A DNA stretch of 60,477 nucleotides, counting the filler, from Hausera hauseri (Eukaryota): NCBI GenBank assembly GCA_046269625.1. It is 11 parts of 11 records of this genome, joined end to end, with 100 filler letters (N's around TTAATTAATTAA, not from the genome) between each part and the next. Parts side by side here need not be neighbours in the genome. Positions count along the whole stretch, not along the records: positions 51,776 to 60,477 come from JBJURY010566561.1; 10 more parts are not named here. One strand, given 5' to 3'. Positions 5,863 to 60,477 of the stretch are shown here, in pieces (the first letter of the stretch is position 1; every line of letters begins with the position of its first letter). The notes under the pieces were generated by a model. That model was not told the DNA's origin. It was given only the letters and a program-made list of their open reading frames with translations, and did no database searches. Both the position numbers and the translations under genes were made by a program.

Positions 5863-5864
5863 AT

Positions 5865-6440: not shown

Positions 6441-6564
6441 GGGGAGATTCGACCACCCTGCAATTTGGGGCCCGCCGCGCCGGGGCGGAGGTCCCGTCCG
6501 TCAACCCTGCACCGGTCGGTCAGGCGGCGCCTTCCGCGTCGGCCCCAAAACACGCCCCAGGCAC

Positions 6565-24251: not shown

Positions 24252-24692
24252 GAGAAAACCATAAATATATTCATTGAACTGTAGACGTAGTGCCGTCATA
24301 CTTCCAAAACAATAAAAATTCAAATGTAATGTTCCCTGATACAACTTGATATATAAATATATATCCTTGGTTAGATTCGAAAAATATACAATACATTACT
24401 TTAAAAATATTGCATATTTGATTTATTTTAATAATTGGTTATGTAATGTACCAAGATCACTACACACATCATAAAGTGATATTGGTACATTACATACCCA
24501 ATTTTTAAAATAAATCAAATATGCAATACTTTTAAAGTATTGCATGGTACATTTTTCGATTCTAAGCAAGGATATATATTTATATATCAAGTTGTATCAG
24601 GAAAAGTTACATATTTTAAATCTTTATTTTTCTTAGAACTATATGACGGCACTACGACTACAGTTCAATTAATATATATATATGGTTTTCTC
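24252..24692. repeat. ~440-bp foldback / MITE-like inverted repeat
   Basis: Arms of ~210 bp (gagaaaaccata..ctgtagacgtagtgccgtcata.. / ..tatgacggcactacgactacag..tatggttttctc) around a ~12-nt loop near 24465. Confidence 0.92.
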
Positions 24693-24858
24693 GGAACAAA
24701 TTTCAAATTTTAGTACATTTAAATTTTTTCATTTCATGTTTTGAAATTATAGACAATGATAGGCGTTGGCAGCAATTCTTTAATAGTAAATGGATTTGTT
24801 TAAATAAAAATACCGTTTGTTACATTCAAATAATTTAAAAATTATTTTTAATTTGTAG

Positions 24859-30049: not shown

Positions 30050-33000
30050 GAGGGGGTTCTGGTCTGGCGCGGTCCCTTCCATCTACTTAGACTTACAGAA
30101 TTCCAAGGATGTTTTCAGCACATGGATGCTGACCAAATTCTCTGAATATATAGTGCTGCTGTGGACGTTGGGCTTGTCAATGAGCTTCTATGCCCGCTTC
30201 CACACACAGACCAACTCTATGTTGATCCTGTTGCGGATATTCGCCATGGTCTTGCCAAAACGCTGTTATTATACAGCTTAAACTGGACCTTCTCAAAATC
30301 CTTCTTGGCATTAGCTTGCATCTTCGTATTGAGGTCTATGTATGTCTGCAGCCATATGGTATAGCTAAACTGCAGGGTCCGATGGAACTTATTAATGCTC
30401 AGTCCATTCCTGACCGTTTGCTGGAGATTTATGTACAGGACTATGTACCTCTCCCTACTATCAGATGGCAGAGTAGTCTTTGACGTTTTTCATGGGGTGG
30501 AGGCTTGCTCTCAGACAGGAAAGACAGCTGTTCACGCCTCGTATGGATATTATGTGTATATTCAACATCCACATCCAGTATGTAGACCGTATTTCCACTG
30601 GGATCCAAGTCCAGTATAGGGATGTATTCAGGATGCTGGAACCACTTCAAGTCATCATATGACAATGGGACGCTTATGGGTAGGCAATATATGAAGATAC
30701 CTTTGCTCGATGGTATTCAGCCATACACTTGTTATTGGCCTCACTATACCTGTGAATGGCCTGGCATATTCCGCCTCTAATGCCTCGCTCAATCATGAGG
30801 ATCATGTCATAATCCTTTATGATCAGTAGCCTAATACCGGTATATCTCAGCATTGCTGCCAAACTCATCCCTGGATCCGTGAAGAAATAAGGTAGATTCA
30901 ATGCACGGCTCTTCATCGTAATATCCCGAAGCTCTCAAAGACATACGTCAGCAGTAGCACATCCGTCATGAGGTGTATATCGCTGTATTCTCCTAATTCT
31001 GGGCATTGGAATGCTTGCCAGATGTTCTGGGCATGCTGGTATTCCATATTACTGATATCGCTATCTGAGGGGATATTGTAAAAGTCCTTGGCCGGCAATG
31101 AGGTCTCATCCAGTGTTTCCAATGATGTTATGTAGTCACAAGGAAACACGTTTTTCCTCTTGACTATGCCAAATGTAGTGGAAAAGAACCGCTTCGTCTC
31201 CTTTAGTTCTTCTGCATGGAGGTTTTTCACTAAGCCGTCAAGTGAAGGTGACATGAAGCGGTAGCTCTCTACAAAGTGAAGTCGGACTTTGTCGACATAC
31301 TTCATGAAGGTGACGTATTTTTCTTCACTGTTTGCGTTGACATCAATGTTTCCTTCAACGTTTCCCAATGCTCGGACTATGAAACAGGAATCATAGGTAC
31401 TGAGATTGTTGAACACTACAGGCACATATGTACATGTCTTGCAGCGTAGATTGCAGTTGTTGCATGCCTCGTCTCGATATTTTGCCTGTAAAATGACAGT
31501 GATCCCTCACTTTCTAATTCTCCATGGTAAAAGACGTCTCGCAAAAGTAACATGCTGTTGCCTTGCGCCATTCTTCTTATTGCTTCTTGAACATGCTCAT
31601 TTTATTCTTATTCTGTTGCAACATATCTCCAATCATATGAGCCATGTCTTCAAATCGATTCATAAAATGAGCTTCTGCATTTGGAACCCTGAATAGATAT
31701 GGTTCACTATGTAGTCCTTTGGCATACATGCAATATGATGACAGCTCATGATATTGGTATGCCGTTGTGCTGGTACGTTGGGTATTGGGGCTTCAACTCT
31801 GAATTGGACGCACAGTAGCCTCAAAGTCGCGTTAGATTACTATTGGGACCTTGATCTTCTTCTCGAACTCCTTAAATTCAGTGTAGTCCTCACTGGGAAA
31901 TTCTGGCCTGATACAGCAATTGTTGTTGCAGTACATATTGTACTCTGCAAGCCTGCCCAATGCTGCATCACCACCGAAATGGGACAAGCATCGCTTACAG
32001 ATTTCAATTCTTCCATGATTTGTTGTTATTTGGGATCTTACTAGACGTTCAAAATTCTTTATCCAAACATAATGCTTCTTTTCTCAATCATCTGGTAGGA
32101 ACAAATCCCTATGTTTGTCCAATTCAGCATCACATATTTGCAGCGGATATAATTTGTTCTCCTCATCCAATCCAAAGATATTAATGGAAATGTTGATTTG
32201 TCCAAATTTTTTGACTTCATCTATGGATGGCGTAAACTTAATAAATTGGAAGTCATAGTTATTCTGCACATCCTTATATAGCCAAATTCGTAAAGAATGT
32301 TTTAGATTCGTTACGAGTTTTGATAAAACGGCATGCATGAAACACATGTTGTCATCATTATGGACATTGATGCATAACTTTTTCTGCTGAATCCATTTAG
32401 GGAGCTGAATATGGGAATTGCCCGCATGGGGGAAACTAATGCACGTGCACACAAATTCTGTTGATGGCTGTCAAGGTCCATTCGCTCTTCTTATCCTGGC
32501 TGTCCTCAGCCTCATGGATCAGCTTCGCATGCTCCTCATATAACCATTCTACTATATTAGTGCCTTCCAATATGGGCCTATCTTTTGCCTATTTTGCCCT
32601 TTTGGATTCTTCGCCATCAACACTAATGTATGTGGCCTCCAGTTTCATATTGACCTTAAGGGCCTTGAGCTCCGCCATGTTGTACTGGAGAATCCCTATT
32701 GTTTCTTCCGCTGTGTATAAGAGGAACTCTTGGATGGTTGTTTGGCCAATTGCTGCAATGACATAGCTGCGAACTTATCTCTTTAGTGCTGCAGCCTCAA
32801 CTGGCCGCTGTCTTTGACTTTTGAATGCAGCATCTGAAATATCTGCTGCTACGCGTTTTAGTCCTGTATCGGGCTGTGCGGCTACATCTGGCTTTGCTGC
32901 CACAGGAGGCTGCATTGTTGCAGCATTTGGCTTTGCTACCGCAGCAGGCTTTGCTGCTACAACTGCCTTATGCTGCTCATTAAAGATGGCCTTCTCTGAC

Positions 33001-33340
33001 TTTGACTTGAAGTCTGTTAAATGGGCAATATGATCTTCATAAAACGGTATGTATTCTCCATTACATACATCCTCACATCCTGGGCAAATATATTACAGGA
33101 TGCTGATGAATTTGTATTCATGGTAGCTTTTCATGGTATTATGACGTTCTGAGGGTTGTGTATTGCACATATATTTGAGCATAATTTTTTTTCGACTTGG
33201 TGAAAGAAATCATGTTTATGTCCATTGTCAAAGTCTTCATAATTGGTTTGGCACACAACCTCACATGTAGGGCATATGTAATACTCATCCCTGTTGTAAA
33301 GATGGCCGTGATTTTGGAAATAACAAAATATGTAGCCATA
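30050..33340 (-). mobile_element. polB: Protein-primed PolB family B (Cys/His N-terminus, endonuclease VII-like zinc finger, exonuclease, polymerase), 3'-truncated and decayed
   Basis: SHIQLPKWI..INVHNDDNMCF, RDHCHFTG, PVVFNNLSTYD, KNVFPCDY, TDVLLL, IERGIRGG, YNNSVFGKTM. Confidence 0.88.
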
Positions 33341-33747
33341 TCAACACATTGCCTAATTTATGGATTTTTTAAATTTTGAATTTATTGATTGAATTTTCGT
33401 TTATTTTCGAATATTCTAGAACACTTCCTTTTAATGCGTCAAATCAAATGAACGTCGGAACAAATTTCGATTTTCTTGTAGGTTTTTGGATATGGGGAAT
33501 AGAGTGATGTCATTAGATACTTTGAATAACGTACGCTTGACCGAATTTTTGGGTTCGAATAGCTAAATATTCGACTTTTAAGCTCTATTTCGAATATATA
33601 ATTTTATATTCAAATTCGCTATATATGGCTTCCTATCTGTATGAGCTNNNNNNNNNNNNNNNNNNNNNNNNNNNNNNNNNNNNNNNNNNNNTTAATTAAT
33701 TAANNNNNNNNNNNNNNNNNNNNNNNNNNNNNNNNNNNNNNNNNNNN

Positions 33748-38339: not shown

Positions 38340-39420
38340 GGGGAGGGATAATCGATAAAATGAATATTGCACATGTACCAATCTATACTGCACATGCAGC
38401 ACTATCGATCGGTAATGTGCTAAGCACATTTTTATACATTTCACAAATCGACTCCTGCACATTGCACAAGTGATCGAATCGATCGGGACAAAGAGCTAGT
38501 CGATAGTGCACATTAGTGCACATCGATTGGTGCACATTGCAGGTGCACTTCACATGTGCAAGTGTGCAAAAATCAATAATATCGGATGCAATCGAGTGCA
38601 CATACGATGCACTATGTGAATGTGCAATTAGAATTTAAATCGATCGAATGGTTTTCGAATAAATACCAACTGAGGGAGAACATGCATAGGCCTCTCCGGT
38701 ATAAAATAAAAATCGATAAAATCGATACTGGACATATACTGATCGGTAGTGCACCTGGTGCACATGTGCAAGTGTGCAAGAATCAATAACATTAGTTTTC
38801 CGATATTTCCAATATGGATGATTATCACGCGACCGGGTGTGTTTGAACACAAATACGATGCACTATACGAATATGCAATTAGAATTTAAATCTGTCGATT
38901 GATTTTTGAATAATATCGACCAAAAGTGCAACTGGGGAAGAATGCCCATAGGTTTTATTTGCCCTAAGAAAACAAAATTCGATATTACATTTAGCGGGGA
39001 CAGATAGGAAACCGAGTATGTAGATCTCGAATATCGAGTCGAATATTCGAAATTCGAACATTTTTTGGCTCGAATATCAAACTTTTCGAAAAATCTAACA
39101 ACGGCATTCTATTTCCCATGTCCGAAAACCCCTTGACGCATTAAAGTTATGCCATAAAAATGTGCTATATAGATATAAAATCAATAACTCGAATTAAGCA
39201 AAATGTGCATTTCAAGCTCAATGAAGCTGAAATCGATAAATCTTTAAGCGGGGCTGGATAGGAAGCCATATATGGCGAATATGACATCATATATTCGAAT
39301 TCGAGCTTTCAAGTCGAATATTTAGCCATTCGAACTCGAAAACTCGGTCAAGCATGCATTTTTCGAAGAATCTGATGACGTTATTCGATTTCCCATGCGC
39401 GAAAACCTATAAGCAAATCG
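38340..39420. repeat. Degenerate ~210-260 bp tandem duplications rich in TGCA/TCGA palindromes upstream of polB family B
   Basis: tacgatgcactat..gcaattagaatttaaatc twice (about 38600, 38855); cacatgtgcaagtgtgcaa.aatcaataa twice; agcgggg..gatagga..tttcccatg..gaaaacc twice. Confidence 0.8.
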
Positions 39421-39660
39421 AAATTGGCGCTGACATGCATTTAATCTATTTGATGCATTAAAACAAAGTGTTCTAGAATGTTCAAGAAATGAACGAACTT
39501 CAATAAATTCAAAATTTAAAAAATATATAAACGAGGCAGTGTGCGTTGATAGAGTTATACATTTCATTATTTCAGAAATCAGTTTCAAGAATGGTGAGTT
39601 TTTATTTGTGCTCGTCAAATAATTGGTTGATTTTGGATTTGCAAACTCTAGAAACAGTGC

Positions 39661-41922
39661 TTGGCTCAAATCCATGAGCCTGAAAATTGTAACAATATTA
39701 TGAAGAAATATTTCAGCCATCTTTACAACAGGACTGAGTATTATATGTGCAATACATGTGAGGTAGTGTGCCAAACGAATTATGAGGACTTTTACAATGC
39801 CAATAAGCATCACCTGATTTTATTCACCAAGTCGAAAAAACAGATATTCAATACGAATATGCCAATAATGACTTTCACGCCTAAGCAAAATCAAGGACTC
39901 AGTTTATACGTGCAATTCAACCCTCAGAACTGTCATAATACCATGAGGATATACTATGGATACAAATGCAAGTGGGTCCTGTATTATATTTGTCCAGGAT
40001 GTGAGGCTGTATGTGATAGAGAATACATGCAGTTTTATGAAGATCATATTGCACATTGGACAGATTTCACGTCAAAGTCAAAGAAGGCCATCTTTATTCA
40101 GCAACATAATCTTGATGCATCTGCTTCGCAATATTCTGCTCCACATTATGCTGATGGATCTGCTGCTGCAGCTGCGAAGCATATTAGGGAATTTAAACGC
40201 GCAGCCGCATCAGGTGCAGCCACATCAGACGCAGCGGCTCCACAAAAAAGTCATAGACAGCGGCAAGTTGATGCTGCAGAATTAAAGAGCAAATGCCGCA
40301 GATATGTTATTGATGCAACTGGCCAAACAACCCTCCAAGAGTTCCTCTTATACACAAAGGAAGAAAAAGAGTGAATTTTTTAGGACAACATGGCGAAGCT
40401 CAAAGCTCTTAAAGTGAACATGAAACTGGAGGCCACATACATCAATGTTGATGGCAAAGAATGCAATAGGGCCTTCAAGACCAAAAATAGTCCAATATTG
40501 GCTGCAGAATGGAACACAGAATGGCTGCATGTGGAACACAGGAAGCTGATCCACGAGGCTGAGGAGAGCCAGGATAAGAAGAGCGGCTGGACTCTGTCGG
40601 CCATACAAAGAGTTCGTGTGCATGTGCACAAGTATTCCCCCATGCGGAGCAGTTCCTATATTCAGTTCCCTGAATGGATTCGGCAAAAAAGCGCATGCAT
40701 TAATGTCCATAATAGCTATAACAAGTTCTTCAAGTATGCCATTCTATGTAAACTCATACGGGATCACATAATGCTTCACGAGTTTGTCTATGTAAGGATG
40801 TGAAGCACAACTATGACTTCCAATATATTAATTTCCCACCATCCATAGACGAAGTCAAAAAATTCGGGAAACTCAACAAAAATTCTATCCACTGCAAATA
40901 TGTGATGTTGAATTGGAAGATCATAGCGGTCCGCTCCTACTAGACGATGGAGAAAAGAAACATTATGTTTGGATCAAGAACTTTGAGCGTCTAGTCAGAT
41001 ATCAAATTACGAAACACACAACAAGAATTGAAATATGCAAACGATGCCTGTCCCATTTTAGTGGTGATGCAGCAGTGGACAAGCTTGCAGAGCACAAAAT
41101 GTATTGCAACAATAATTATTGTATCAGGCCAGAATTTCCCAAGTAGGATTACATTGACTTCAAGGAGTTCGAGAAGAAGATCAAGGTCCCAATAGTCATC
41201 TATTGAGACTGAGGCTATTCTCAGGCCAGTTCAGAGCTGCAGTCCTAATCCACAACATAGCAGCACAACGGCATACCAATATCATGAACTCTCATCATAT
41301 TGTATGTATGCCAAAGGATTGGACAGTGAACCATATCTATTCAGTGATCCAGGCGCAGCAGCTCATTTCATGAAGGGACTTGAAGGCATGGCTCACAGGA
41401 TTGGAGATATGCTGCAGCAGCATAAGGATACAATGAGCATGTCGAAGATGCAGGAAGAAGAATGGCGCAAGGCAACAGCATGTTACTTGTGCTCAAAACC
41501 ATTCACTAAGGATAATTATAAAGTCAGGGATCACTGTCATTTTACAGGCACATATCGAGGCGCGGCATGCAACAACTGAAATCTACGTTGCAGAACATGT
41601 ACATTTGTGCCTGTAGTGTTCCACAACATCAGTGGCTATGATTCCCACTTCATTGTTCGGGAGCTGGGAAACATTGTAGTAAACATTGATGTGATTCCCA
41701 ATAGTAAGGAGAAGTACATCACCGTTACAAAACATTTTGAGAAAATCAGTCTCCGCTTCGTAGACAGTTTACGTCTCATGTCGTGTTTACTTGACAGTTT
41801 AGTGAATAACCTCCCTACAAAAGAACTTAAGTAGACAAAGCGGTTCTTCCCCACTTCATTTGACCTCGTCAAGAGGAAAGGCGTGTTTCCCTATGACTAT
41901 ATAACATCATTGGAAATATTGG
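39661..41922 (+). mobile_element. polB: Protein-primed PolB family B, 5' part, decayed
   Basis: KSGWTLSAI, MRSSSYIQFPEWI, HYVWIKNFERL, CYLCSKPF..VRDHCHFTGTYRGAAC, PVVFHNISGYDSHF, KGVFPYDY. Homologous to 31100-33340. Confidence 0.88.
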
Positions 41923-42022: not shown

Positions 42023-45000
42023 TGCCAAACTAACTGATTGCTAACAACAGCATATCATCCTCAATGCAATGGTAAAGTCGAAAGATTGAACTATACCGTG
42101 CAATGTATATTATCAGCTATGATAGACAAGACGCAAAAAGATTGGGACATCCACTTAAAAGTTGTGCAGTTTGCAATAGCAACCACACCTACTAGCTCAT
42201 CAGGATATACACCATTCAAATTAATGTATGATAGAAATCCATTGCTGCCAATGGACATCCAATTATCACCAGAAAAGAAAATACCTGAAGATTAGTCTGA
42301 TGAAGAAATACACGAAAGCGTTGCAAACAGTTTAGCAAATTGTTGGGAAAAAGCTAAACAAGCCATCAAACAATATAAACAAGAATATCAAGAGTACTAT
42401 AATAAAAAAGCTAAACCTCATAAATTCCAATCAGGTGATAAAGTAATGGTACATTACCCAGTAGCGAAACCAGGAAAATCATTGAAACTAACCCGCACAT
42501 TTAGGAGACCCTACTTGGTAGTAAAGCTCACACCTGAGAACATATTTATTGAAAAGGGCACTGGTAAAAAGACCAGAATTAAATGTATATTAGCCCAAAG
42601 AGTTACAAAAGGACCCAAAGATCCAAAAGTTAAAGAAGAACCTCAATACTCATTGCGATCATCGAAACAATTAGTTTTAAACCAGCTTGTAATTTAGAGC
42701 CGTTATTCCTTATAATCATGATTTTTGGCCTAATACTATCAACCACGGCACAAACCTTGGAAACAGACCCTATAAGTAAAAACTTAGAATTACGAGCAAA
42801 ATTGCCTGGCAAAATTCATTGGAATCAGTAAATGGACTATTCGTAGGAGAATCAAAGTACAAAGAAATCACTCAACTAATCTTACCACCAGAAATTAATG
42901 ATGCGATTTGGTTATCAACTAAACGTTGCTCAATCCCATTATTAAATGAGATCTGTCTTGTAGACCTTTACTTTCTAACAACTGAAATGTTATTGAAACC
43001 CAAACAGAAAATCCTGCCAATAGCAAGACAGGTATACGTAGAAAAAATTGGCCCTACCTTTTTCTTTACACAAGAAAAGGACAATGAACCAAAACTAATA
43101 GACAAGGTCATGATAAAAAGACCGACCTTAACTAATGATGTTGATTTACAAATAACATTATTTCCCAAGATTATTCAAACACAAGTTTGGCGAAAAAGCC
43201 TTAAACCTCCATATTCATATGCCATTACTGCAATTCTTTAAAATGAGACAAGAAATAATATCAACTATGACCACCTTATCTCCAACTAGTAATAACCCAA
43301 TTACTATATTCAACCTGAATAAAATACCCAATGTTACCATGATAGCAACAGACTCGTATATTGAGTTTAAAGTCTTTCAATTACTAGACTATCCTATTTC
43401 CATAACTTGTGTAGGAAAATATCATATCATATACGCCACCATAAAAAGCACGAAAGAATAACTAGATGCAGTGACCTTCAGCCTGACGAAGAGTATCTAA
43501 TCGTTTTCACTCAACACCATGCTGTAACAAGACATCGAACAATTAGAACTCAAACGAGAACTATAAAAAATTTAGCGCTTGAAGAATTTCTAATCTATAC
43601 AACCATACATCTAGTAACTAGTCCCACCACTCAAACCAATATGTTGAAAATCTTAGTACCCTCCATAATAATAGTATTCCTTCTACTGTCCATATCCACG
43701 CCGTTCGTAATAATGGAACTAAAAAGACTTTCTAAAAAACGAACCACTATGAATAAAACTTTCTTACTATCAACCAATCTAATATGTTTAGTAGGTTATA
43801 GTATGGAGTGGATAGTCGACGTTGAGGAATATAAAAAATTCAACCTAAACTATAAATATCCAAAAATACAAACAAAACAGTTGTATAAATTAGCACACCT
43901 TCAAAAATCAAAAAGCTTATACACACATAATTATATAACACATCAAAAACCAATAAAACTTGACTACAGAAAGTCGAGTACCACACATATTCAAAGACTA
44001 TATGAAGCTAATCACACCGTTCAGATTTCTTTTCAACAACAACAAAGTATGGAAACAAATTATTTTGACCTGGACTTGGATTTCTCAGCAGATAACAGTA
44101 TCAGCTCCGATGACTCAACCGAAACAGTAATCATCAACCCCAAACGAAGGGTCATTTTACCAGAAGAGGAACTAACAACAGTTCCCCAATCTGCAGATCA
44201 ATCGACAAATAATATATCAAATTTTACCTTTCGCAACCCATTACAAAGTGGAATTTCCAGAGGAATCCTAGCATCATCAAGTAATAAAAGAAATTGTCTA
44301 AGTTGGGATCCACCACGAAAATTTACTGCAGAAATCAGACGTAAATCCTTTACAATGGACGATCTAACACAACAAAAGAAATCGAAACTCTATGATCAAT
44401 TGGTAGAAAACGTCGAACAACTGGAACGAGATAGAATAGACAAAAGACCCTGGAATGAATTATATAACAAATTCGTTAAAATCTATCAACCAGAGAGGAA
44501 CATTTTTCCTTCCAAGTTCTATGCTCGATTTCAAGAACTAGCTGAAACATCTTCAGACATCTTTTATCCAGAATGTCGCTATATTGATAACACACTCAAA
44601 AACACAACAATTAATGAAAGATCATTCAGGATACTGCGTATTGAAACCCCTTCAATGAATATAAACCTCAAATCTATGTTGCATATAGACCAACAATTTG
44701 ATAAAGTCCTATGGCATGTAGCCCAAGGAAAACTACAATTCAAAGCAGATGCTGATATGTATGACGAATTAAGATTACAGAACTCATTGCTAACGTCCAA
44801 AATGACAATGAGTATCAAGGCTCCATCTTTCCAAACAAAAATACTAATGCGAATATTATTAACACCAGTAATCATAGGAGTCAAAATTTGTCAACTTTTG
44901 GATATCCACCTAGGTCTCCAGCCTCCAATATTCTATCAAACGCCCAAAGAATTGAATATGTGCAACTATCGGCTAACCAAAGCCAATAACTTTCGATACC

Positions 45001-46366
45001 TAGCTGTCTCGCTAGCTTACGCACCAAACGGTGATCCTATTCCCATAGAAGTAATTATAGCAGACAAAGCTAAATTGGTTATATTTCATGCATTCATTAA
45101 TCCACGAAGAAAAGTGGCGAATACCAACGAGAATCACCGTGGACTGTCAATGGCTTTAATTCAACAAGCCAAAGATGAAAAAATAGTCCGATCAGAGGTT
45201 ATCAAGTATTTATATGGATATATCGTAATTAGTGCTAACACCAGCACAATATTGAAGGTACTTCGTATACCTTCCACCTTTGCCTATGGTATGATGGATA
45301 TATTATCTACACCAAATACTAAAGCCCGCTTTGCCGAGGCTAAAATGAAACCAAACCTGACACAATTACCAAAGATGTATAATCTAATATACGAATTTCC
45401 AAAAGCTGCTGAACCTATCTTACAGTCCATTATCGAAATACATAACCAGCTGTTAGAAAACTGCACAAATGAATAATGGGAATGGAATTGGATCCCTCCA
45501 GATAACAACCTAATCAGTGACGAAGGATTTATGAAAATACCAAAACAATACCATAAAGACTATCAATATGAAGAATTACAGAAAGTAGATGAAGCTAACC
45601 AAAGCTCAACCTGTGAAAATCTAATACAACAAATGAAATGTAATACAATGAAATTGCTACAAAAAGCAATAAGTAAAAAAATTCTTATTCAATAGAACTA
45701 TCAATATTGTTATATGGACAAACACAACAAATCATTAATGCCCAGTTCATGCAAAAACATCTAACGGTTATAAACCAACATAGACAAATCCAGCCTAACC
45801 CCAGGCTCGGATCAATAGTTGAAATAGTGTATAAACACTCCACGAATAATACACTACATTTAGCGATAGTTGGGGCCCAACTTGAGACTATTAAAAGTCT
45901 TGACCACGAACCGGTATTGATAAATCAACCAATACCTATGCAGTTGGACCTAATTCCCACCCCTAAACCAAGGGGTACAAAGATCATCAAGTTGCAAGGA
46001 ACCTCCAGAGAAAAACTGAAGATGTTTTTGTATCAAAAAGAAGGCCGATTCCTATTGGAAAACGTTTACAACATTGAGGAGATAGTTCAAAACGAAGAAG
46101 AAATGACTAAAGACAGTATACCAATTCAATTTTGATATACCATTTTCTTTGTGTTTTTTACTGTATAATTCTCTCTATCTTTTATGTTTTATTGTATCTT
46201 ACATTTGTATTGACATTGTCGTAACTTTATTGACATTTTGTTTCTCTTTATGTCATATATATTATCACATTCTTAAAGTTTCTTTTATATACTGTCTTTG
46301 CTGATTTTTTCGAATAACCCAATAAAAACTAATTTTGTAACCAAAATTTTTTAAAAGGGGTAGAAA
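42023..46366 (+). mobile_element. 3' part of a Ty3/gypsy element: IN, then ~3.4 kb extra coding region (signal, FN3-like, TM, DEDDh-like), then PPT
   Basis: TAYHPQCNGKVERLN, GYTPFKLMY; post-IN region similar to 51776-52900; PPT aaaaggggtagaaa at 46353-46366. Confidence 0.85.
43407..45476 (+). CDS. 689-aa open stretch of the post-integrase ORF: FN3-like end, TM (43650-43715), cytosolic region, REX4/ISG20-like exonuclease fold (44991-45450)
   Basis: CSDLQPDEEYLIVF; ILVPSIIIVFLLLSISTPFVIM; VIFHAFINPRRKV....RGLS..LIQQAKDEKIVRSEVIKYLYGYIVISAN..ILKVL. Confidence 0.65.
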   Translation: MCRKISYHIRHHKKHERITRCSDLQPDEEYLIVFTQHHAVTRHRTIRTQTRTIKNLALEEFLIYTTIHLVTSPTTQTNMLKILVPSIIIVFLLLSISTPFVIMELKRLSKKRTTMNKTFLLSTNLICLVGYSMEWIVDVEEYKKFNLNYKYPKIQTKQLYKLAHLQKSKSLYTHNYITHQKPIKLDYRKSSTTHIQRLYEANHTVQISFQQQQSMETNYFDLDLDFSADNSISSDDSTETVIINPKRRVILPEEELTTVPQSADQSTNNISNFTFRNPLQSGISRGILASSSNKRNCLSWDPPRKFTAEIRRKSFTMDDLTQQKKSKLYDQLVENVEQLERDRIDKRPWNELYNKFVKIYQPERNIFPSKFYARFQELAETSSDIFYPECRYIDNTLKNTTINERSFRILRIETPSMNINLKSMLHIDQQFDKVLWHVAQGKLQFKADADMYDELRLQNSLLTSKMTMSIKAPSFQTKILMRILLTPVIIGVKICQLLDIHLGLQPPIFYQTPKELNMCNYRLTKANNFRYLAVSLAYAPNGDPIPIEVIIADKAKLVIFHAFINPRRKVANTNENHRGLSMALIQQAKDEKIVRSEVIKYLYGYIVISANTSTILKVLRIPSTFAYGMMDILSTPNTKARFAEAKMKPNLTQLPKMYNLIYEFPKAAEPILQSIIEIHNQLLENCTNE

Positions 46367-47310
46367 TGTGAGAGAATGATAGAAAAACCTTAGGAATGTT
46401 TTATTTCTTATTTATTATTTAAAAAAAACTTAGGAATTAAATACAATAATTAGTGTCCAATAAATTATGCACTTTAAAGTCTCATTTAGTTGATACACTT
46501 GTAAGTAACGAGACAGTATAGACTCATAAATGTTGTATGTTAGCATAAGCCAAACTGTCAGAGTCCAGTAACCAGCGTACTATGCTGCATGATATGTTGG
46601 AGAGCATAGCGTCAGAATTTGGTGACTAACGTACTGCAGTATGGCTAGAAGGTATTCACATGCATCGTTGGTCAAGCAAAGTGATACCACACAATATATG
46701 TTTATCATGGATTCATCAAAAATTAATACCACATAATTTAGTGTCGAAAAATAGTACTAATATACAGGGTAGTAAAAGTAGGTAACTAAACCAAAAATGA
46801 AAACTACACAAAGTATAGTTTATCAAACGAAAAACAATATAAAACCACGCAATTTAGGATCTTTACAAATCTTTTAAATAAACACAAAACAAAACCCCGC
46901 AAATTAAATAGGATATATATACTTAGCTTGAAACTTATTTAATCGCACAAAAATTGATGTCAAAATAATAATTTTTGGCCATTGTACTGTGCCGTTTAAT
47001 TCGGATACAAAGCTACAATCATTCCTATTCAAATTCACTTTTGTTCGGCAGAATCAGCAAGACGGTTTTTTTTCTTTGTAACACTGCTTGCTGTGGTTTC
47101 AATCCAAATAAATTCTGGTATTCGTTCAATTATTTGATTTTGAAGGAATCCTACGGAGATTTTGTAAGTATTTTAATAATCTATTTACGTGTTCATTTAT
47201 TTATCTTCTTCGTGAATAAATAAATTCGTTCCCATTAATTAAGAGCGACAGCAGCCGAACTACTAGTAGGCCAAGCTATTATACACAAAGTAATTAAAAT
47301 ATTACAATAG
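46367..47310 (+). repeat. Probable 3' LTR (starts TGTGAG after the PPT; right end uncertain)
   Basis: TG directly follows the PPT; non-coding with AATAAA signals. No second copy in the window to confirm. Confidence 0.5.
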
Positions 47311-47694
47311 TAAATAATTCTCTCTTGATTGAAATCCTTTCACTAGAGTGTTTTAAAAATCCTTATACAAGGGATCTCAACAAGGAAAAACAATCAAAGT
47401 TTCATTAACCATTTATGAAAAATTTTCTAAGAAATTTAAAAAACAGAATTGAATATTTAATTTGGATTATTGAAGAAAGATTAGAATTTTTCTTCGCAAG
47501 AAAAGCCATTGATAAGGAGATAAAACATCAACAAAAGTTAAATCAGCAACAAAGCTTTTAATAAGAGACAAGAATCCAAATTTTAACTTTTGCANNNNNN
47601 NNNNNNNNNNNNNNNNNNNNNNNNNNNNNNNNNNNNNNTTAATTAATTAANNNNNNNNNNNNNNNNNNNNNNNNNNNNNNNNNNNNNNNNNNNN

Positions 47695-49640: not shown

Positions 49641-52600
49641 AAACAATGAAAAATAAAACATCACCGAGCCATACGTCGGAGGGGTTGTCAATTGCGCTTG
49701 GTAATATTGGGAAAGGCACCAAGCATATAGACGTTTGAAGAACTGCCAAAGTCGGCTGCTTGGGGGCCTCCGTACACAAGTAAACGGTTTTCTTGTAGGT
49801 TTGGGGAACCAGTTCCACGCCTACTGTAAATTAACACACAGACAGAAGCCATGGGGGATTTGGGGAGATCAGGTGTGGTAGCATTTTTCGGGGATGAGCG
49901 GTCGCACTTGGTCAGTGGCTCGAACCTGTCCGTCCACCTTGACCTCCCAAGTTCAGTGTATGGATCCCAGTAGCCATCTCCTAGTAACAGTCTCGACCGA
50001 CTGGCTAAACTACACTGAGCGCCCTGGCTCATGTTTGTGTGTCTGTGGTTTCCCACAGGCCTCAGACAGCGTGACTGCAAGACCATTCCTCATTCAGCAC
50101 TCTTAGTGAAGGCACCAGGGTGCATGACGTGACGATCCCTTTGATAGAGCACATGATTTCCCAGAACAAACATGGTTATATCCAGGATACAGCGGTCATC
50201 GGATGGCGGGGAATGCACAATGGTGAGCCCACTGGGTCTGTAGCTCCTGGAATGTGGGATGACTAACAGTAGGAAGGGGTTGAAATCGGGGACACACCAG
50301 CAGAAGCAATTTGGAGCTAGCAAAGGAAAATAAAATACTCCCCAGTGATTAGTGGTACAATGCCCACCATGCCCTGCACAAACTGCATGGGATAGAGGAT
50401 AACTACCGCCCCCTCCCCCACCCGACTATATTTATGCCCTACCATTTGTTCAAAAAAAAAACGAGCTCGAGACCCACAGACTACAGCAGGATGCAGACAT
50501 TGTACACACCAAAATGAGACAGTGAAGCACCACCTGCTGTCTTGCTCCACACTCCAGGAGCTGAGACAGACTCTACTACCTGACAACCCAAACATAGACA
50601 GTGCCTTATATGACAGACCACAGCAGTTTATTATAACTGCGCAGTACCACATACTGGCATCAAAGTCAACAAGAGCTGACACCTGATGACTGTGAATCAA
50701 AGATAAGACAAGAAAGAAGCCGTACCGAAAAGGGATGTATATTTCACAATAATCATCAGGTACCAAGCCATGCAGCGTAGGCTGCCTTAGATCACCATAT
50801 CTAGCGCTTTTATCATGTCTCCAATCATTTCAACCATTGATCGTTTTTCGATCCACCTTGTCACTTCACTTTCATAATATGCGCCTCCACGTTGTTCATG
50901 GATCTATATTTAGTATCATAATTAGGCCAACACCAGAAACAAACTGTTTTCAAATTTCTTGTACGAAACAGCTATTTAAGTTTAATTTCTCTCAACACTT
51001 GCATAAATTCGCCATTCTGGGTTGGCGTTTATCAGACATCGTGACAATATTTCACGTAATGTCACGCTATTTAACGTCTGTGCCACTAGCCTCGCATAAA
51101 ATTATGACAAGGACATTTTGCCACAGAAATAATTGCTTATCTCCTCCATAAAACTTCAGGCACGACAAATTTAATGGTCGTAATATATTACGGTACCGGG
51201 TGTCATTATACGAAGCTTTACATGGAAGAAGTTATGTGGAACCCTAGGGCATTTTTCCTAAGCGAAGAGTTATGAGACAGGCAGAAGTGTGTCCCAAATA
51301 TTTAAAAAATATATTCATATACCCCTGTAATAGTGTGTTGATCGTAGCTCACAAGTTATCCATTTAATTTCATCAGTCGCCTCCCCTTTTGGTTTGTGTT
51401 CACCTGCAGAGCAGAAATCACGCTTTAATGAGTGAATTCTCATAAAAGCCACCGGATACGCTGAGCTTATTAAAAAGACACTGAGCTGTTAAATCGACAC
51501 TGTGAAGGACGGTTGTAAATGTATTTTTAGGCCACAATTTGGTTATGTTAAAACTAGTACCGAAATAGAGATTTATTTTATGAATAACAAAGTTGTGTGT
51601 GGCCAGAACGAAACTGTCGATGTTCTATGTTGTTTAAACCCAGACCATGGAGAACGTATGCTGCAGAATCTTTTGNNNNNNNNNNNNNNNNNNNNNNNNN
51701 NNNNNNNNNNNNNNNNNNNTTAATTAATTAANNNNNNNNNNNNNNNNNNNNNNNNNNNNNNNNNNNNNNNNNNNNTACTGAGATCATTATATGGCATTAC
51801 TTCAGTTTTACTGCCAATAGTTCGTACTTTAAAAGTTTTAGGGTTCTTACCCTTTGCGGTAATTCTGATTATATAGTCATGTTGCGGCCGTAAGGACCTG
51901 CATTCAGTTTCCTGACTATTCTTTCTCAGGATCACAACTTGATTGGTATGCCAGGTGCGACATTCAATTTTAACGTCTCGATTTAACGTTTCTTCTGCAT
52001 AGAATAGAATTCTATCACTCTTGCCAAAATCTTGACTAGTATGTTTCCTGGCATTTCGTCTAAAGTGACGATCGTAGTAGTGAGAGTTGTACTTGGAACT
52101 GTAGATGGTCTTCTCATAGTGGTTGGGAAGGAAAGCTTTTATCTTCCGATTTTTGGACGCTATCCTCTTAAATAAGTGATTTATTCTCCGGGGTACTTAT
52201 TGTACAAGTCGAATTGTAACTGATAATCCTGTCCTGGTTGTATTACACAGCACGTGGTGGATCGGCGTCTGGCCAGGTAACAACATTTCGGGTTAGAAAT
52301 AGAAGCATTCAATGGTATAAATCGGACTGAAATTTGCCTATCTTCGGGCAGTTCCACCTTAGTTTTGATTCGAATACATTGGTTTTTTAAGTCCTTTGAA
52401 ATTCCAATAATCTTATAGTATAAAAGTCTCTTAAACGGGTCAGTGCTTCGGATTATTTTGTCCATCTTGGCATGGTTTGCGTCCTTTCGTTGGGGCATTC
52501 TTATTAAGAGTTCTGTAATTATATAAGCTTGAGCTCCAAACTGATTAGAATAAAACATTTAAAATCTGTACCCGTAGGCTTGTCCAAAATCTAAATCACA

Positions 52601-52999
52601 ACATCTTTTGTAATGTCCGTACGGAAAATCGCATGTCCTTATCGTGGATCTAGTTACAAATATTATTTGAAATTTCACATAACTCTGAATGGGTTCACTT
52701 GTTTCAAACCACGCACATCGTTTATTCCATTCCATATCGTATATTCTAAATGGCTGTAAGTTTTGGATATCTCTTCGTCTTTCCGCATATTGTAATTTTT
52801 CAGCTTGATTTATCGATTTCACCTTCGATATATACGAAGCGATTAACGGTAAGGCCAAGACTATTTGCACATAAGATATTGGTCTAGTCACTATTGATGA
52901 TGTTTTTGTTTCTTTATTTGTTTTGCACGAACGCAAATTATAGCGTTTGTATGGTCTTAGTTCCGTTTTAACTACTCTCCGAATTGATATTACCTCTTC

Positions 53000-55900
53000 C
53001 TTACCGTTTTTATTTCTATAAACTGTAGTTGGCATAATCTTGGTAACTTCACAAGATCTTCTACCTGTCCTGGTAAGCTTAAGAGATGTGCCTTTCTTTG
53101 ATACTGGATAGTGTACGTAAACCCAGTTTCCGGGTTCTAGATCGTGTGGTTTAGCCTTCTTATCGTATTGCTTCTTGAATTGTTCCTGGTATTCTTTGGA
53201 TAATTCCTTGGCTATTTCCCAACACTTTTGTAACCTCGATTATAATACTTGAACAAAATTCTGCTCTAGATCTTCCGTTTTTGTTGTGAGGGAATTAATC
53301 CTAAATCTGTAGGCAGGACAGCTTCTCTACCATACATCATAAAAAACGGAGTGAATCCTGTTGCAGGATGTGAAGTCGTATTAATGGCAAACTGTGTACC
53401 TTCTAAGAACTCATCCCAATCTTTCTGGTCTTTTGCGACTACTGTCGATAAGATTCGTATAACTGTCGCGTTCATTCGTTCGACCATTCCGATACATTGT
53501 GGATGATAAGCTATGGTAGTTAGTCGTTCGATCTCAAAAAGTTTGGTAATTTTGTTGAACAATTCGCTCGTAAAGTTCCTTCCTCGGTCAGTCAAAATTT
53601 GTTTGGGTGTCCCGTATCTTCAAATTATCTTCCGGACTACTAATTCTGCCAAGGTCTCGGCCTTTTGGTCTACTAACGTTATAAGCTCAACAAAGTGAGT
53701 TAATCTATCTACTCAAGTCAAAATATATTTATTGTTTTTGTGGATCGTAGGTAATGGTCCTAGAATATCCATAGACATTGCTTGCATTGGTCTATCGGGC
53801 ACGTTGATAGGCTTAAGCTCGCCGGCGTAGTTTTCACTTTCCTTTGTTTGGTTGCGCATACATCGCAAGCGTTCACCCAATTTCTCACATCGATATAAAT
53901 GCTCGGCCAATAGTACTTTTTTAATATCCTTTCCCATGTCTTTTTCCACGACATGTGTCCGGCTAAGTATAAATTATGTTCGGCCACGAGTACTTCTGTA
54001 CGCAATCCTTTTGGTATTATACTACCAATTTTCGTTCCTTTCGTTCGTAGTATAACACGTTTTCGTGGTTCAAATCTCCAACAACGCAGTATTTGCGACC
54101 ATATCGTCGTAGGTGTTTTCGCAGCTGATGACTCTTGAGTGTTACATTGGTGTAAACGAACTCGATAATCTGTTGTATAACCTTATCTTTTCTTTGTTCA
54201 ACAGCAATCTCCAATGCCTTATCCAGTGTGAGAGTTCGTTGTCTCTCTACCAAATCTTCAAGTTCGGCTTTCCTTATTATCATAACTGCGCTGGTTTTGG
54301 TTTTAAGTCTCGATAGTGCGTCGACGTCGACATGTTTATTTCCTGGTTTGTATTGGAATTCAATATTGTAACGTGAGATCTCTTCGATCCATCTGTTAAG
54401 TCTATAGGTAGGATTATTTGCTCTACCCTTCGAAGTCGTAACTGCCTTATGATCAGTAACGATTACGAACTTCTGTCCGTATAAGTATAGGTTAAAATGT
54501 CGCAGGGTTTCTTTCACCGCTAGCGTTTCTAACTCCGTGACGGAATAGATCTTCTCTGCTTTCTTCAAAGAGCGTCCTCCATATGCAATCTGGTGTTCTA
54601 GATCCTCATCCTCTCGTTTTTGAGCTAATTCATATCCGATGCCTTCCTTACTGGCGTCTGTTTTGATTATGAACGATAGATTAAAGTCAGTATATCTTAA
54701 AACAGGTTCACTAATCAGAATTTTCTTCATTTCATCTAAAGCCTTTTGTTCGACGTCGGTCCATTTCCATTTGATCCCCTATTTTAGGAAGCGACATAAC
54801 GATACCTTTATCTTCGCGTTATCTGGTACGTAGGTGGCGTAATACCCACATAACCCTAACCAGTGTCTTAATTCTTTTTGATTCTGAGGTTCCATGCAAT
54901 CTTGTATCTTGCATAGTAATGATTTTTCAGGCTTCGACCCTCCTTCTACAACTATGTGTCCAAGGTACGACACAGCATTCTGAGCCCATTTGCATTTCTT
55001 GGGATTCAGCTTTAGTCCAACTTGTTCCAGCCTCATGAGCGTACCTTCAATGTCCTTTAAGTGATCCGCTTCCGTCTCTGACGCAATCATGACGTAATCC
55101 AAGTAAGAGAACGCGTGTTCCAGTCCCATAAACATTTAGTTCACCATGCGGGTGAAGATGGCTGGTCCGGTGGTTATCCCGAATGGCATTACGTCGAATT
55201 CGTATAAGCCGTCGTGTGTCTTAAATGCCGTCTTATATCGGTTTTCCTCCTCTATCTCTACTTGCCATTTAGCTCCAGAGAGTCTGTCCAAGGCTTCCTT
55301 TACCGATGGTAACGGAAAAAATTCTTTCATCATATGTGTGTTTAGCGCTCCATAGTCAATACTAAATCGGTGCTTAGTAGTACCTTTCTTCTTAACCATA
55401 ATTATAGGCGAGTACCAAGATCTATAGCTTGGCCTTATTATGCCGGCTTTTAACATTCGTTCAACCTCTTTGATTATCTGTGGTCTTAGTGAGTGTGGAG
55501 GAGGGTACCATTTCGGCATCCTTTGATTTTCCAAATCTATTTCGTCGTTCGATAAAGGCTTTTTCTTAAGTGGAATCGTGAGTCTTAAAATCTTGGCTCG
55601 GCCAATATCTTCTTCATCTTTCGCCATAATTGAGCTATAACGACAAAGTAAGTCGTAAAATCGGCAGTACGATTCCGGTGAGAATTTAGTCTCAACGTAA
55701 GGTGGGATTTCGACACCCTTATAAATTTTCTTTTCTATAGTAATTGGAGATATTCTATACGTGTGTCCCAAAGTGGTATTGGCGTACAGTTTGGTCGGAG
55801 TTGGTGCATTATTCGTTATTCTGTTTGGTACGTGGCCTGTTGATAATCTTGTCAAAATATTGCTGAGTACAAGGTTTGGATTAAGTAATTCTTTCGGCTC

Positions 55901-56400
55901 GAAATATACTGGCTGATCGTCATCTTGATGTATTTGGGTATATATGAGTACTTCCGTTCTGGGCGGTATGTTTTTATCTACTGGGATCCACACTTCTCCG
56001 AACTTCCTTTCTTTAATGGTTTTAATACCTTTTATTGGGCCAAGTTCTATCAACATGCCTGCATTGAAATCGATTGCTATATTGGGTAGTTATCTCAATA
56101 AGTAGTATCCTAATACCATATCATCCGTTAACCGCTCCATTACTGAAAATTCCTGGTGAAAAGATTGTCCCATTATGTGAATCTCTGGTTTCTATCGAAA
56201 TTTACTTTTTGATGATTGTCCGAAGGCTTTCGGTACTTCCTGAATCTGTCGTAGGAGGTGGATACAATTGTCCTCGTAAAAATTTCGGTATTGAATCGTA
56301 TTTTGTCAATGATATTTCGGATCCTGTGTCTATCAGCGCATATACTTCCCAATCTTGTAATTGAATTTTTGCAAAGGGTGTTCCTTCAATTATTGTACAG
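53000..56400 (-). pseudogene. pol: pol (PR-RT-RH-IN), copy B
   Basis: Gypsy domain order. RT has an 11-codon deletion removing the LDL catalytic motif, and YLDD is changed to YLDY. Confidence 0.93.
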
Positions 56401-57089
56401 TAATAGTTTGGTGCCACATGACGGCGTCGGATCGTGGATATTTTGTAACCATTAATGGTGACTTCTGTGGTTTCGACTGGCTTGTCAATCAGCTGCCTTA
56501 ATTCTTCGATTAGGTATAGTTCATTAGTCGCGCCACTCGTGTTTTCTGCTCTTTGGTTTCTAACCGGCGACTGAACATCTTGGTTTCGGAGATTTCGTGC
56601 CTCACAGCTTCGAGTAAATGTCGATTGCGTTTCGTTTGGCTTAGTTATTCTAGGTGAGTAAATTATACCGTGGTAGTCGACTGCGGATCGAAGGGGTGGA
56701 GCCGAGGTCTCCTCCGTTTCGTGGATCTTGCGCAATATCCCATAGCGTTTTGTTTCTTCGTAAGGATCCTCTAAACTAAATAACTTTCAATAGATGTCTG
56801 TCTGGCACGAGCTCGTAGATTGTTTCTCGCAGTCGTCATATATAGTTGCTGTTGGCGGCAATATTGATAGTGGTAGTTTCGTAACAGAGTAATTTTTGTG
56901 CCTACTCGGCCTGAGGATGACGGCTCCCCCTTAAACTCGTCATCATCGGAATTTTTTTTATCGTGTTTTACTGACTATGAATTTTTGCCTATAATTGAAT
57001 AGATGTCTTTTACTTTTTCGGTTATGGTAGCCAACATGTCGCTCCACATCTCTTTTCCATCTACTTTCTTCATAAGCCTTTAAGAATTT

Positions 57090-58890
57090 GCCGAATGGTG
57101 TAATAACAGCCGTTAAAATTTTGCACGAAAACCCTATCAAGGTGAATATCTCGTATCCATTTATGACTGCTTGAATTATAGCTTTTACTAGTTAAATTAA
57201 GAAGTATATTGCTAAAAATCTTGATGCGGCTTGTCCGAATATTAGGAATCTTCCCCAGATTTTATATAATATTTCCGTAGTTACCTTTCTATCATAGCCA
57301 ACACTAAGTAATGACTTCCATTTTGCCTGAGAGCAAGAGTCCTCTAGTACTGTATGCATCGCTCTGTTTAATTCATGTGTACGTTGGGGGGGACAAACAA
57401 GAAATTGTTTAAACGCCTCTACTTCTTTTGGTCGGTAAATACCTTTTGTGGCTGTATCCTAAAATTTATCATCGGTTATTCCTTTTATCAGGTTTGTTCC
57501 TGTCAGATTGGTAGGTGGTGCGATAATACCACCGTTCGGTAGACTTACCCAGTCGGTCTCGCTACGTCTGAACATCGACTCTCCTAAGCTAGTTTTACAG
57601 TCTCTCAAAATTGTCGGTTGAGTGGCATTTGCCAACAACACTGTGGTAATCGGTGTTACTAATCTCGTACGTCCTGATATATCACTTGGAGTTCTTGTAT
57701 ACACCTTTTCTCTTTTACATTAATCGGCACGTCTTTCTTTTCACATTCATAGGTCAATAAGACCTCTCGAGTTACTCGTCCAAAAACGCCCTTCTTTATT
57801 GGAATTACTGATGATGCCAACTCCGGATTGGCATATATCAGGGACAGCTTAATTGTCATGATTTCCAAGTTTAATTTACAGTCATTTGTTATCATTTTGT
57901 GGTACAACTCGGCAATTCCGGCTTGTCCTTTATAGTAAAAATAGTCGTCTCTGTTCTTCAAGTAGTCTTCAATCCGGATGTCCTGAGTCTAGAGTTTGAA
58001 CGTTCTGGCGTTTATTTCTGTCGCGGCTACAAAAAATGCTTCATGGTTGGTGGCATACATTACGACGTCGCATCTGGTGAGCACAGATTTCTTTACGTTT
58101 TAATCCATGAGTATAAGAAATCAGTATCGTAGGCGTAGATGTTTAGGCTACATCTTCTAGTATTTTAGAATTAGTTTCCATTCTACATATTTATCGCTTT
58201 CATGTCTTCTCGTTGAATTTAGGTTCTTTGATTCTGATAAAATTGCAATCGGTCTTGCTGGCGGTTCCCAAATTACCACGGAACCTCGAAACGGGCATGT
58301 GCCATCTTAAATGTATCACTTGTGGTTCTCGGTGTAAAGTTTGGTAACGCTATGAAACAACACTTTCTGTATACGCATTTATGTTTCGTAAAAATCCACT
58401 ACTACGATGTTTGACTCTAACCCCTATACGGTATCGTATTCCGCACCGCAACAATGTCGGGTGTGCATATATAGTCTTCCTGCTGGCACTTTATTCACTC
58501 TGATTATTTTCCCTTGCTGCATTTCCATCTCCATACAATCTCATTTTATTCGCCCCGTTTTTCTAGCTTGCTTACAATGCTGTCGCTCTAAATTCATCGG
58601 AATTAGTGGGGTTGTTGGCTTAATTATTGACGTGTGTCCATGTACCAATCCACAATGGAAAATGCTGCGAGATCGCCGCAAAATACATTCTACTCCATTC
58701 AAGGTAAGTAGTTCGCGTTGCTGATATAATATATAACTTTTCGCTTTTGTCTTTAGTGTGTGGGGCCTCGCGTCATCGCACATTTCCAAGTCCATTAACG
58801 AATATTTTCGGCCAAGTCTGATTTTGTCACAATCATATACTGTGACTGCACCCATAAACATCATCATTGTCAAAAAATTGATTAGCCAGT
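57090..58890 (-). pseudogene. Chuvirus-like glycoprotein, copy B
   Basis: AVTVYDC..YSLMDLEMC..RSIFHCGLVHGHTSII; LYHKMITNDC; EVLLTYEC; IWGRFLIFGQ. Confidence 0.8.
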
Positions 58891-60477
58891 TCGATTCATT
58901 TCCTCTGCGATTTCCGGTTACATTTCATAGCAGATCTCCGAATCTATTGTTATCGAAGAAGAATCCACTCTGATGCTCTTCTTCTTTCTCCAATACCTTA
59001 GACCAGTCCACTTCTCGAGGCATTTTCCTGGTAACCTATCTTGTCAAACTAGTAGCTTTGCTAATTTCATTTTCTCGGTTCGGGTTGGTTTTGATGGCTA
59101 GATATAGCAACGCTTTTCTTAATTCTTCTATGGTATTTTCTACCATAATCTTCTCGATTATCGTTTCATTGCTTAAGGTACTTCTGGATAATTTATATCG
59201 AAGGTTTTTCATAGCCTTTGCGGAGTTAACTATGGCCTTCTCCTTCTCATCTACTACATCACAGCCGAGATTAGAGTGGTTCACTACTCGTATCAAAATT
59301 TTCATAAGTTCGTTCAGTTCCTCATTATCCGCATTAAAGGTTGGTATAGACATTTGTTTGAACTTCCTGATTAAATCTCCATTATAGTCGATTTCTTCCC
59401 GCGTTTTTCGTGGTCTACCGACAGGACGCTTCCGTTTTGTTACAGTAGGTATATTTCCATTGATCGACACTAATTTTTTATTGTATTGCTCATTATATTC
59501 ATCTGTCTGCAGGTACTCAAAATATACTGATGCATCTCGGACTCCTATTATTTGTCCTACCTGCTGTTCTGCTTTAGCCTTCCTTATAGCCTCTACCTTT
59601 GTTTCGTCGATAGCAGTGAATATCACTAACCAGTTTATTTCGTCTGGAATAATTCCAACCTCTATCAACAACTCTGACTCGTCTAGTATCCTTCCTCTAA
59701 AATAAAGTCTATATCTCAGCTCATGGACGTATCCATTTTCCTTCATCCACAGTAATACATCCTTGACAATGGAGCGCATAGTAAACTCTTGTTCTCTCTC
59801 GTCCATCTAGTCTGATACTATATTTACTGAAATCATTTCCTCTGCCTTTGCCTTTAAGATTTTAGCATATTCCTTAAGTAAAAGCTTAGATACTGTACTA
59901 GAAATCGTACCTTTGCTAGCTAACTTAGTTACGGTAGGAACTAAATGTCTCAATTGAATTTCAGTAAGGTTCACTTCAGTTAATTGAATTAAATCTTTCT
60001 CGGTTTGTACCGGGTCCAGGAGCATTTCTACGTTGAACCTTTGGTCTGGAGAGTATATCTCCATTTCCTCCAATCGTATTGGGGTTTTCGGATTCTCGGC
60101 AGTCATTGCGTCTAAATAGGCTTCCCAATCTGGTTCATTTTCATTATCCGGCAGTTGATAGCTCCTCGACGGTGTATTAGTTGACCTGTCTACACCTGCG
60201 GTCCACGTAGTTTTTCTGAGTTTTTGTAGTTTTTGTTGTATTTGGACCATTTTCGTCGTTCGGAAATATCGTCCATTAGCAGACGTTCGGTGGAGCAGTG
60301 TTAACAACGAACATAATTCTTCGGGTGAAATTAATCCATTTTCTTGATATTTCGTTAGTTTAGACGTGACATCTCTTTGCCATCTTTAAACGAATTGTGA
60401 CCTGTCAAGTTTTTCTGCTTCTGTAAGAGCGTATTTGTTTTTATAAACTTCGAGTTCTTTAGCTAGTTCGTCTAATC

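Follow-up and report, generated by a model that had tools for sequence, protein, structure and literature searches.

The 60,477-nt stretch of DNA analysed here (the window), from the Hausera hauseri assembly GCA_046269625.1, consists of 11 contigs joined via 100-nt spacers, and two of them carry copies of a retroelement with a viral-type fusion glycoprotein gene (env) placed ahead of pol. Because the window is built of spacer-joined contigs, copy A (1–5206, plus strand) and copy B (51776–60477, minus strand) are separate contigs, each of which is filled by its copy and cut at both ends. We consider it very probable that A and B are dead, truncated Ty3/gypsy copies that likely belong to the Burro-like flatworm type, with a gB/chuvirus-type env upstream of protease (PR), reverse transcriptase (RT), RNase H as well as integrase (IN), likely as one polyprotein. 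The features of the two copies and of a third, related element are given below, with P0003 and similar labels standing for database proteins matched by env (TM, transmembrane segment; HMM, hidden Markov model; aa, amino acids).

1–989 (plus, copy A): ubiquitin-like domain (97–273), GRPRK motif (480) and helical pre-env region
990–2831 (plus, copy A): fusion glycoprotein of gB/Monjiviricetes type (PF24664), a single frame interrupted by 5 stops
2832–3242 (plus, copy A): tail/linker of env, continuing the env frame; frame break at ~3221
3203–5206 (plus, copy A): protease (RVP, E=3e-5), region between the domains, RT with YLDD, a short remnant of RNase H, contig end
59810–60385 (minus, copy B): 5′-most frame, corresponding to the helical region ahead of the ubiquitin-like domain of relatives (HMM of P0008/P0017/P0018)
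59039–59806 (minus, copy B): ubiquitin-like domain (weak), GRPRK AT-hook-like motif and helical region at the Burro BCL2-like position (HMM)
57070–58900 (minus, copy B): gB/Monjiviricetes-type fusion glycoprotein, from internal signal-like stretch to TM, broken (PF24664; tblastn with P0003/P0006/P0153; hydrophobicity)
56202–56786 (minus, copy B): stop-free frame from the env tail/linker motif to the ALIDTGS protease motif
55700–56089 (minus, copy B): domain of ~130–180 aa between protease and RT, at the position of the Burro dUTPase-like domain (alignment to P0003/P0006/P0153)
54300–55513 (minus, copy B): RT and RNase H, single frame with stops (RVT_1, RT_RNaseH)
52895–54020 (minus, copy B): integrase with H2C2 zinc finger, core and C-terminal part, frameshifted (Integrase_H2C2, E=1.1e-18; rve)
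51776–52894 (minus, copy B): predicted second membrane protein behind integrase; the contig stops before any TM
42038–46900 (plus, third element): 3′ end only, on contig 42023–47594 (tblastn, 44–53% to the integrase end of copy B)

In copy B, Pfam matched RVP, RVT_1, RT_RNaseH, Integrase_H2C2 and rve, and this PR-RT-RNase H-IN order identifies a Ty3/gypsy-type pol. An earlier note on this DNA had described two diverged copies and, in fact, A and B share 66–68% DNA identity over two long aligned blocks. Both are broken by many stops and frameshifts and, in addition, the RT of copy B lacks an 11-aa stretch found in A and in all relatives and has a degenerate YxDD motif, so the copies are dead and unable to perform the functions proposed below for the element. 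An alternative genetic code was ruled out, since all three kinds of stop are present and mostly at differing codons in A and B. At two places the copies have different stops at one aligned codon (94–99, plus, with 59804–59809, minus; and 1344, plus, with 58543, minus), and in the first of them an ATG directly follows the stop in both copies. Decay is likelier there than a stop-start junction because three relatives are continuous through this region. Neither contig holds gag or a long terminal repeat (LTR), both end inside coding sequence, and no CCHC motif was found in any of the three plus-sense frames of either copy, both contigs beginning downstream of the expected gag. An unrelated gypsy pol, 27% identical to A and B in RT-RNase H, is located on another contig of the window.

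The glycoprotein had been described in the earlier note as a Cys-rich protein of ~600 codons, with a signal and a C-terminal TM before the protease, and as a chuvirus-type fusogen, and both descriptions agree with our results. With stops read as X, the env of copy A (990–2831) matched PF24664 (Monjiviricetes_fusion) over residues 5–609 of 614 with E=3.6e-56, and it contains 14 Cys, 3 N-glycosylation sequons, a hydrophobic, signal-like stretch at the N terminus and a TM at the C terminus. The env of copy B is scattered over several frames with many stops, and both fragments tested (58541–58924 and 57659–57988) matched PF24664. When a profile of 129 env sequences was compared with the PDB, 39 of the 41 matches were herpesvirus gB (best E=2.4e-4, over the central helix), and an 11-sequence profile gave nine matches that were all gB and all weak; the PDB search with a single env sequence gave no matches. 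According to these profiles, env would be a gB-like, class III-type fusogen with signal and TM. Ten env matches other than polyproteins were looked up and only one bears a virus name, the glycoprotein of Tacheng tick virus 4, which we take to be a chuvirus, at 23% identity. The chuvirus-type label seems fair at the family level, with no virus appearing as a close relative.

The two copies also record how env evolved, a question that the earlier note had raised. Between A and B, env shows 64% aa identity, with a proportion of nonsynonymous differences (pN) of 0.21 and of synonymous differences (pS) of 0.83 over 575 codons, and RT shows 78% aa identity with pN 0.12 and pS 0.80; pN and pS are reported here since synonymous sites are saturated, which precludes dN/dS, and the env pN is inflated by the frameshifted stretches of B. 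Env therefore evolved under purifying selection: its low pN relative to pS, similar to that of RT, indicates that, until the two copies decayed, selection maintained it as it did the remainder of the polyprotein.

Word-index homologue searches with env gave nothing, and no related loci were found in the viral contigs and JGI metagenome contigs searched, but a full HMMER scan did reveal relatives, with 538 matches at E≤0.001. Fourteen of the 16 matches with the best E-values are 748–3243 aa long, and env identity to the best polyprotein relatives is 24–31%. Twenty matches, picked by rank or length, were scanned with Pfam, and half of them contain env and then protease in one protein (P0003, P0005–P0008, P0010 and P0013–P0016), five of these ten also with RT and four with integrase. 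P0153 (4844 aa) has env then protease in one protein as well, plus ankyrin repeats, and gag motifs are located upstream of env in P0008, P0015 and P0018. An env tree was made with copy A and with 124 of 151 matches, retained by length; in it the window env falls on a long branch within a 15-member clade (support 0.997). The protease lies downstream of env in the same protein in 11 of the 14 database members of this clade (10 by motif, P0016 by Pfam), and the remaining three end at or within env. Two proteins with other arrangements, P0032 (env after DUF5641) and P0070 (env after integrase), are outside the clade. Furthermore, the motif Y.[VIL]YQ[EQ], which was picked by eye from five of six Schmidtea env rows, is present in copy A and in 9 of the 14 clade members and in none of the 110 other matches.

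Some of the matched proteins have further peculiarities. P0003 (HBK71150.1) is an intact env-pol polyprotein of 2627 aa whose record, on a 9-kb contig, names it a Flavobacteriaceae hypothetical protein; animal DNA was probably binned with a bacterial genome by mistake. After env, P0005, P0006, P0007, P0008, P0013, P0015 and P0153 carry two to six aspartyl-protease-like repeats, and P0006 and P0153 seem, by eye, to have more of them after integrase. P0084 (1000 aa) has immunoglobulin domains fused ahead of a Monjiviricetes-type fusogen.

With respect to the junction between env and pol, the earlier note had the copy B frame 56202–56735 run from a glycoprotein motif into ALIDTGS. This frame is indeed stop-free from EDPYEETKRYGILRK to ALIDTGS, and the chance of 150 open codons at the composition of the B junction is ~2e-5; however, it ends at 56786, and the EDPYEETKRYGILRK motif lies ~110 codons past the TM, outside the glycoprotein proper and in a tail/linker of poor conservation. 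In copy A the motif stands in the env frame, and the frame break that had been placed at the A-run 3221–3224 was confirmed, as the frame of A relative to B shifts permanently at A 3221/3222. In copy B the frame of the TM is also that of the protease, with six stops and two brief out-of-frame detours in between. No open env-pol frame is seen in either copy, so the claim that env is in frame with pol holds for A and B combined and for the intact relatives, on which the continuity is based, and not for either copy by itself. An alternative is that env and pol are separate translation units joined via a programmed frameshift at the A-run ~3221, with the open junction of B as an accident of decay. 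Copy A does change frame at ~3221, its env frame meets a stop at 3240, the stretch from TM to protease is open in neither copy, and frameshifting ahead of pol is common in LTR elements. Nevertheless, there is no X XXY YYZ slippery heptamer at ~3221, B remains in frame through the junction for 194 codons, both copies have many further single-base breaks, and env and protease share one open reading frame (ORF) in the 11 clade members mentioned above, and we consider separate units very improbable. The same 11 proteins support the env-pol polyprotein that had been proposed for these elements.

Elements of this layout have been described before. In planarian Burro elements, env lies in frame and is placed between gag and pol (Arkhipova and Yushenova 2019, PMC6431247), and GAG-ENV-POL gypsy elements with gB-type env are reported in Platyhelminthes, Bryozoa and Nematoda, alongside 114 arthropod gypsy elements that have chuvirus-like glycoproteins (Chary and Hayashi 2026, PMC13524379). 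In Burro/GYPSM1, a giant Ty3/gypsy of dugesiid planarians, env is likewise in frame, between upstream accessory domains and PR, and has homology to mononegavirus fusion glycoproteins; like the window copies, Burro has a ubiquitin-like domain upstream of env and an extra domain between PR and RT, and decayed copies with stops and frameshifts are also on record (PMC6431247). Burro also has Gag, BIR, MATH and ankyrin domains and a size of 25–30 kb, which are outside the view of the end-truncated window contigs, whereas the window elements have a short env-to-protease linker and a single protease. In the Platyhelminthes_C1a group, with Smed_errantivirus_1-6, a gB-type env is likewise upstream of a gypsy pol (PMC13524379), and the domain I–II motifs of the window env are, by eye, nearer to the six Schmidtea rows than to the Bryozoa, Nematoda and Insecta rows, in a comparison that covered 2 of the 114 parts of the file that holds them plus search rows. 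The errantiviruses of PMC13524379, included on the basis of intact ORFs and multiple near-identical copies, are intact and often multicopy, whereas A and B are broken and diverged from each other to the extent given above; they are decayed relatives and not 'intact errantiviruses'.

The regions around env and protease were compared with the same relatives. The family HMM of P0008/P0017/P0018 detected the ubiquitin-like domain at A 97–273 with E=2.8e-4 and the 59810–60385 peptide of B with E=0.012, both among 1396 window peptides; the ubiquitin-like counterpart in B had E=4.2, and there are weaker, correctly ordered matches in both copies. The Pfam ubiquitin match in copy A had E=0.084. These matches point weakly to a ubiquitin/SUMO-like domain upstream of env, as in Burro-like elements. 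In four relatives, env is immediately preceded by a Bcl-2-like segment (E=4e-4 to Bcl-xL), and the inter-domain region between protease and RT of copy B aligns with the equivalent region of P0003, P0006 and P0153. Because the ubiquitin-like domain before env and the Bcl-2-like segment of the relatives match the Burro order in PMC6431247, A and B likely belong to the Burro type, as judged from sequence features.

Several observations weigh against a Burro-like element with a gB-type env fused to pol. Burro membership rests on domain order and on motifs compared by eye, and the trees contain no Burro or Schmidtea sequence; moreover, copy A has only two of the four Schmidtea-derived motifs tested. 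The RT of the window is only 37–48% identical to that of relatives, and the RT tree, with its 10 taxa, is of insufficient size for a monophyly test. No direct Bcl-2 match was found for the window pre-env region, and its hhalign comparison with Bcl-2 gave E=0.018 and a probability of only 2.5%, at the expected place, while the protease-RT domain at the position of the Burro dUTPase-like domain had no Pfam match. The fold computed from the single env sequence has a pLDDT of 31 and is unusable as a structure model.

Other groups of elements have also been compared. Nematode non-canonical endogenous retroviruses reportedly include a metavirus with env before pol, and a continuous gag-env-pro-pol ORF is said to have been described for it by Sacco et al. 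in 2022. To our knowledge nematodes lack axonemal dynein, and an axonemal dynein fragment on a neighbouring contig counts against a nematode, with the reservation that the contigs need not share one organism. The nematode env rows are, by eye, unlike the window env (PMC13524379). BEL/Pao elements with chuvirus glycoproteins (Dezordi et al. 2020, PMC7642597) have a fusogen of the same Pfam family but belong to another superfamily and have env in another position; a BEL/Pao pol with env after integrase is not found in the window elements.

The earlier note had interpreted the window as an independent capture of an RNA-virus fusogen by a gypsy lineage, and thus as a candidate new enveloped retrovirus-like group. 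The low identity of env to its best polyprotein relatives, its long branch and the divergence of RT would fit this proposal, as would the statement in PMC13524379 that GAG-ENV-POL elements are not monophyletic. However, env nests in the clade of retroelement polyproteins and not beside a virus, indicating that it was inherited and not newly captured by the window lineage. In addition, the ubiquitin-like domain and a post-integrase module are common to the window and its clade relatives, and the layout has already been published (PMC6431247, PMC13524379), so that neither the independent capture, which seems to us highly unlikely, nor the new group could be maintained. It could also be argued that the glycoprotein is an endogenous viral fragment, or a nested insertion, located by chance beside a gypsy pol, and Jingchuvirales glycoprotein fossils beside gypsy fragments are in fact common in arthropods (PMC10084718). 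Nevertheless, env occupies the same position in two copies with saturated synonymous sites and pol-like purifying selection, and the intact relatives show the same domain order; we regard this explanation as refuted and its probability as minimal, env being family-wide. An inherited env within a Burro-like gypsy polyprotein is the reading that we retain.

Behind integrase, copy B has a signal-like stretch in the integrase frame (52838–52894) and two units with the motif C..[LI]xPxxxY (52184–52426 and 51792–52019) that resemble fibronectin type III (FN3) domains. In the four full-length relatives (P0003, P0006, P0014 and P0153) a signal-like hydrophobic stretch also follows integrase, with a later hydrophobic segment, and the C..[LI]xPxxxY motif is common to three of these four, copy B (twice) and the third element. 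The latter comprises an integrase end, an FN3-like unit (43455–43562) and a TM (43641–43697), with ~3.7 kb between integrase and purine tract and a 701-aa open frame. This frame ends in a DEDDh-exonuclease-like tail (44991–45473), for which Arena_ncap_C gave E=0.0076, below the cut-off, and a PDB search gave no support; a purine tract (46353–46366) is followed by TG, a combination that A and B do not show, and the LTR would start at 46367. Pfam fn3 gave E=0.11 for one of four post-integrase stretches, and four of the six sequences in the Pfam scan, including the post-integrase stretch of P0003, had no match. The Atlas Ig/fn3 scores for the FN3-like unit were 0.78–0.80, which are leads only, and the five PDB matches of the FN3-like stretch were all FN3/Ig cell-surface proteins, with E 0.34–1.6. 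The indications of an FN3 identity of these units are weak but consistent.

As the layout with env upstream of pol has been published (PMC6431247, PMC13524379), the predicted post-integrase membrane protein is the only possibly new part of these elements. We have not found such a protein in the literature searched, and other publications or supplements may already describe one; in the parts available to us, the account of Burro in PMC6431247 mentions no membrane protein after integrase, and the text of PMC13524379 contains no mention of fibronectin, FN3, dUTPase or polyprotein. It is possible, and we propose it tentatively, that Burro-like elements are enveloped retroelements with two glycoproteins, both derived from one polyprotein: a gB-type fusogen encoded ahead of the protease and, in the position after integrase where env usually lies, a separate FN3-like type I membrane protein for attachment or triggering, some of them adding a DEDDh-like exonuclease or a Bcl-2-like domain as counter-defence. 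By analogy, this split would parallel the division between fusion and receptor binding in herpes- and paramyxoviruses.

The anatomy of the elements, together with how signal sequences and retroviral proteases work, suggests how an intact element could operate. Translation would start in gag, which is missing from contigs A and B, and the internal signal sequence would send the env ectodomain into the endoplasmic reticulum, where signal peptidase would free env from the upstream accessory domains (ubiquitin-like and perhaps Bcl-2-like). The single TM anchor would stop transfer, so that the tail, protease, RT and integrase would remain cytosolic and fastened to env at the membrane until cleavage by the protease released the enzymes during assembly, one enzyme set thus being placed beside each env. 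A second signal sequence after integrase would release the FN3-like type I membrane protein, and enveloped particles passing between host cells could be the outcome.

Several other features were observed in the window. At 5307–10496 (plus) a Prp8 fragment, 70–77% identical to many eukaryotes and with no close match, continues in frame as a coiled-coil stretch, with a second host-gene-like fragment and a gypsy element behind it. A 490-aa open frame at 18886–20358 (plus) contains repeated GRPRK AT-hook-like motifs (Pfam AT_hook, E=0.011), and a 470-bp imperfect palindrome, 83% self-complementary, is located at 24237–24706. Two copies of a decayed element, 75–77% identical, are present at 31110–33637 (minus) and 39257–41922 (plus), and by eye they resemble what we take to be Polinton/Maverick-type DNA polymerase B fragments.

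With these data, a kind of element that is known but has been little studied gains a divergent, decayed family, and the intact database polyproteins confirm that fusion of env to pol characterizes the family and has long been under purifying selection. If the host is not a planarian the finding would matter more, as Burro1 has been called planarian-specific (PMC13465017). According to PMC13524379, the mechanism by which gB-only errantiviruses enter cells is unknown and, if the two-glycoprotein proposal is true, the FN3-like attachment partner would address how a lone gB enters cells and would provide a testable candidate.

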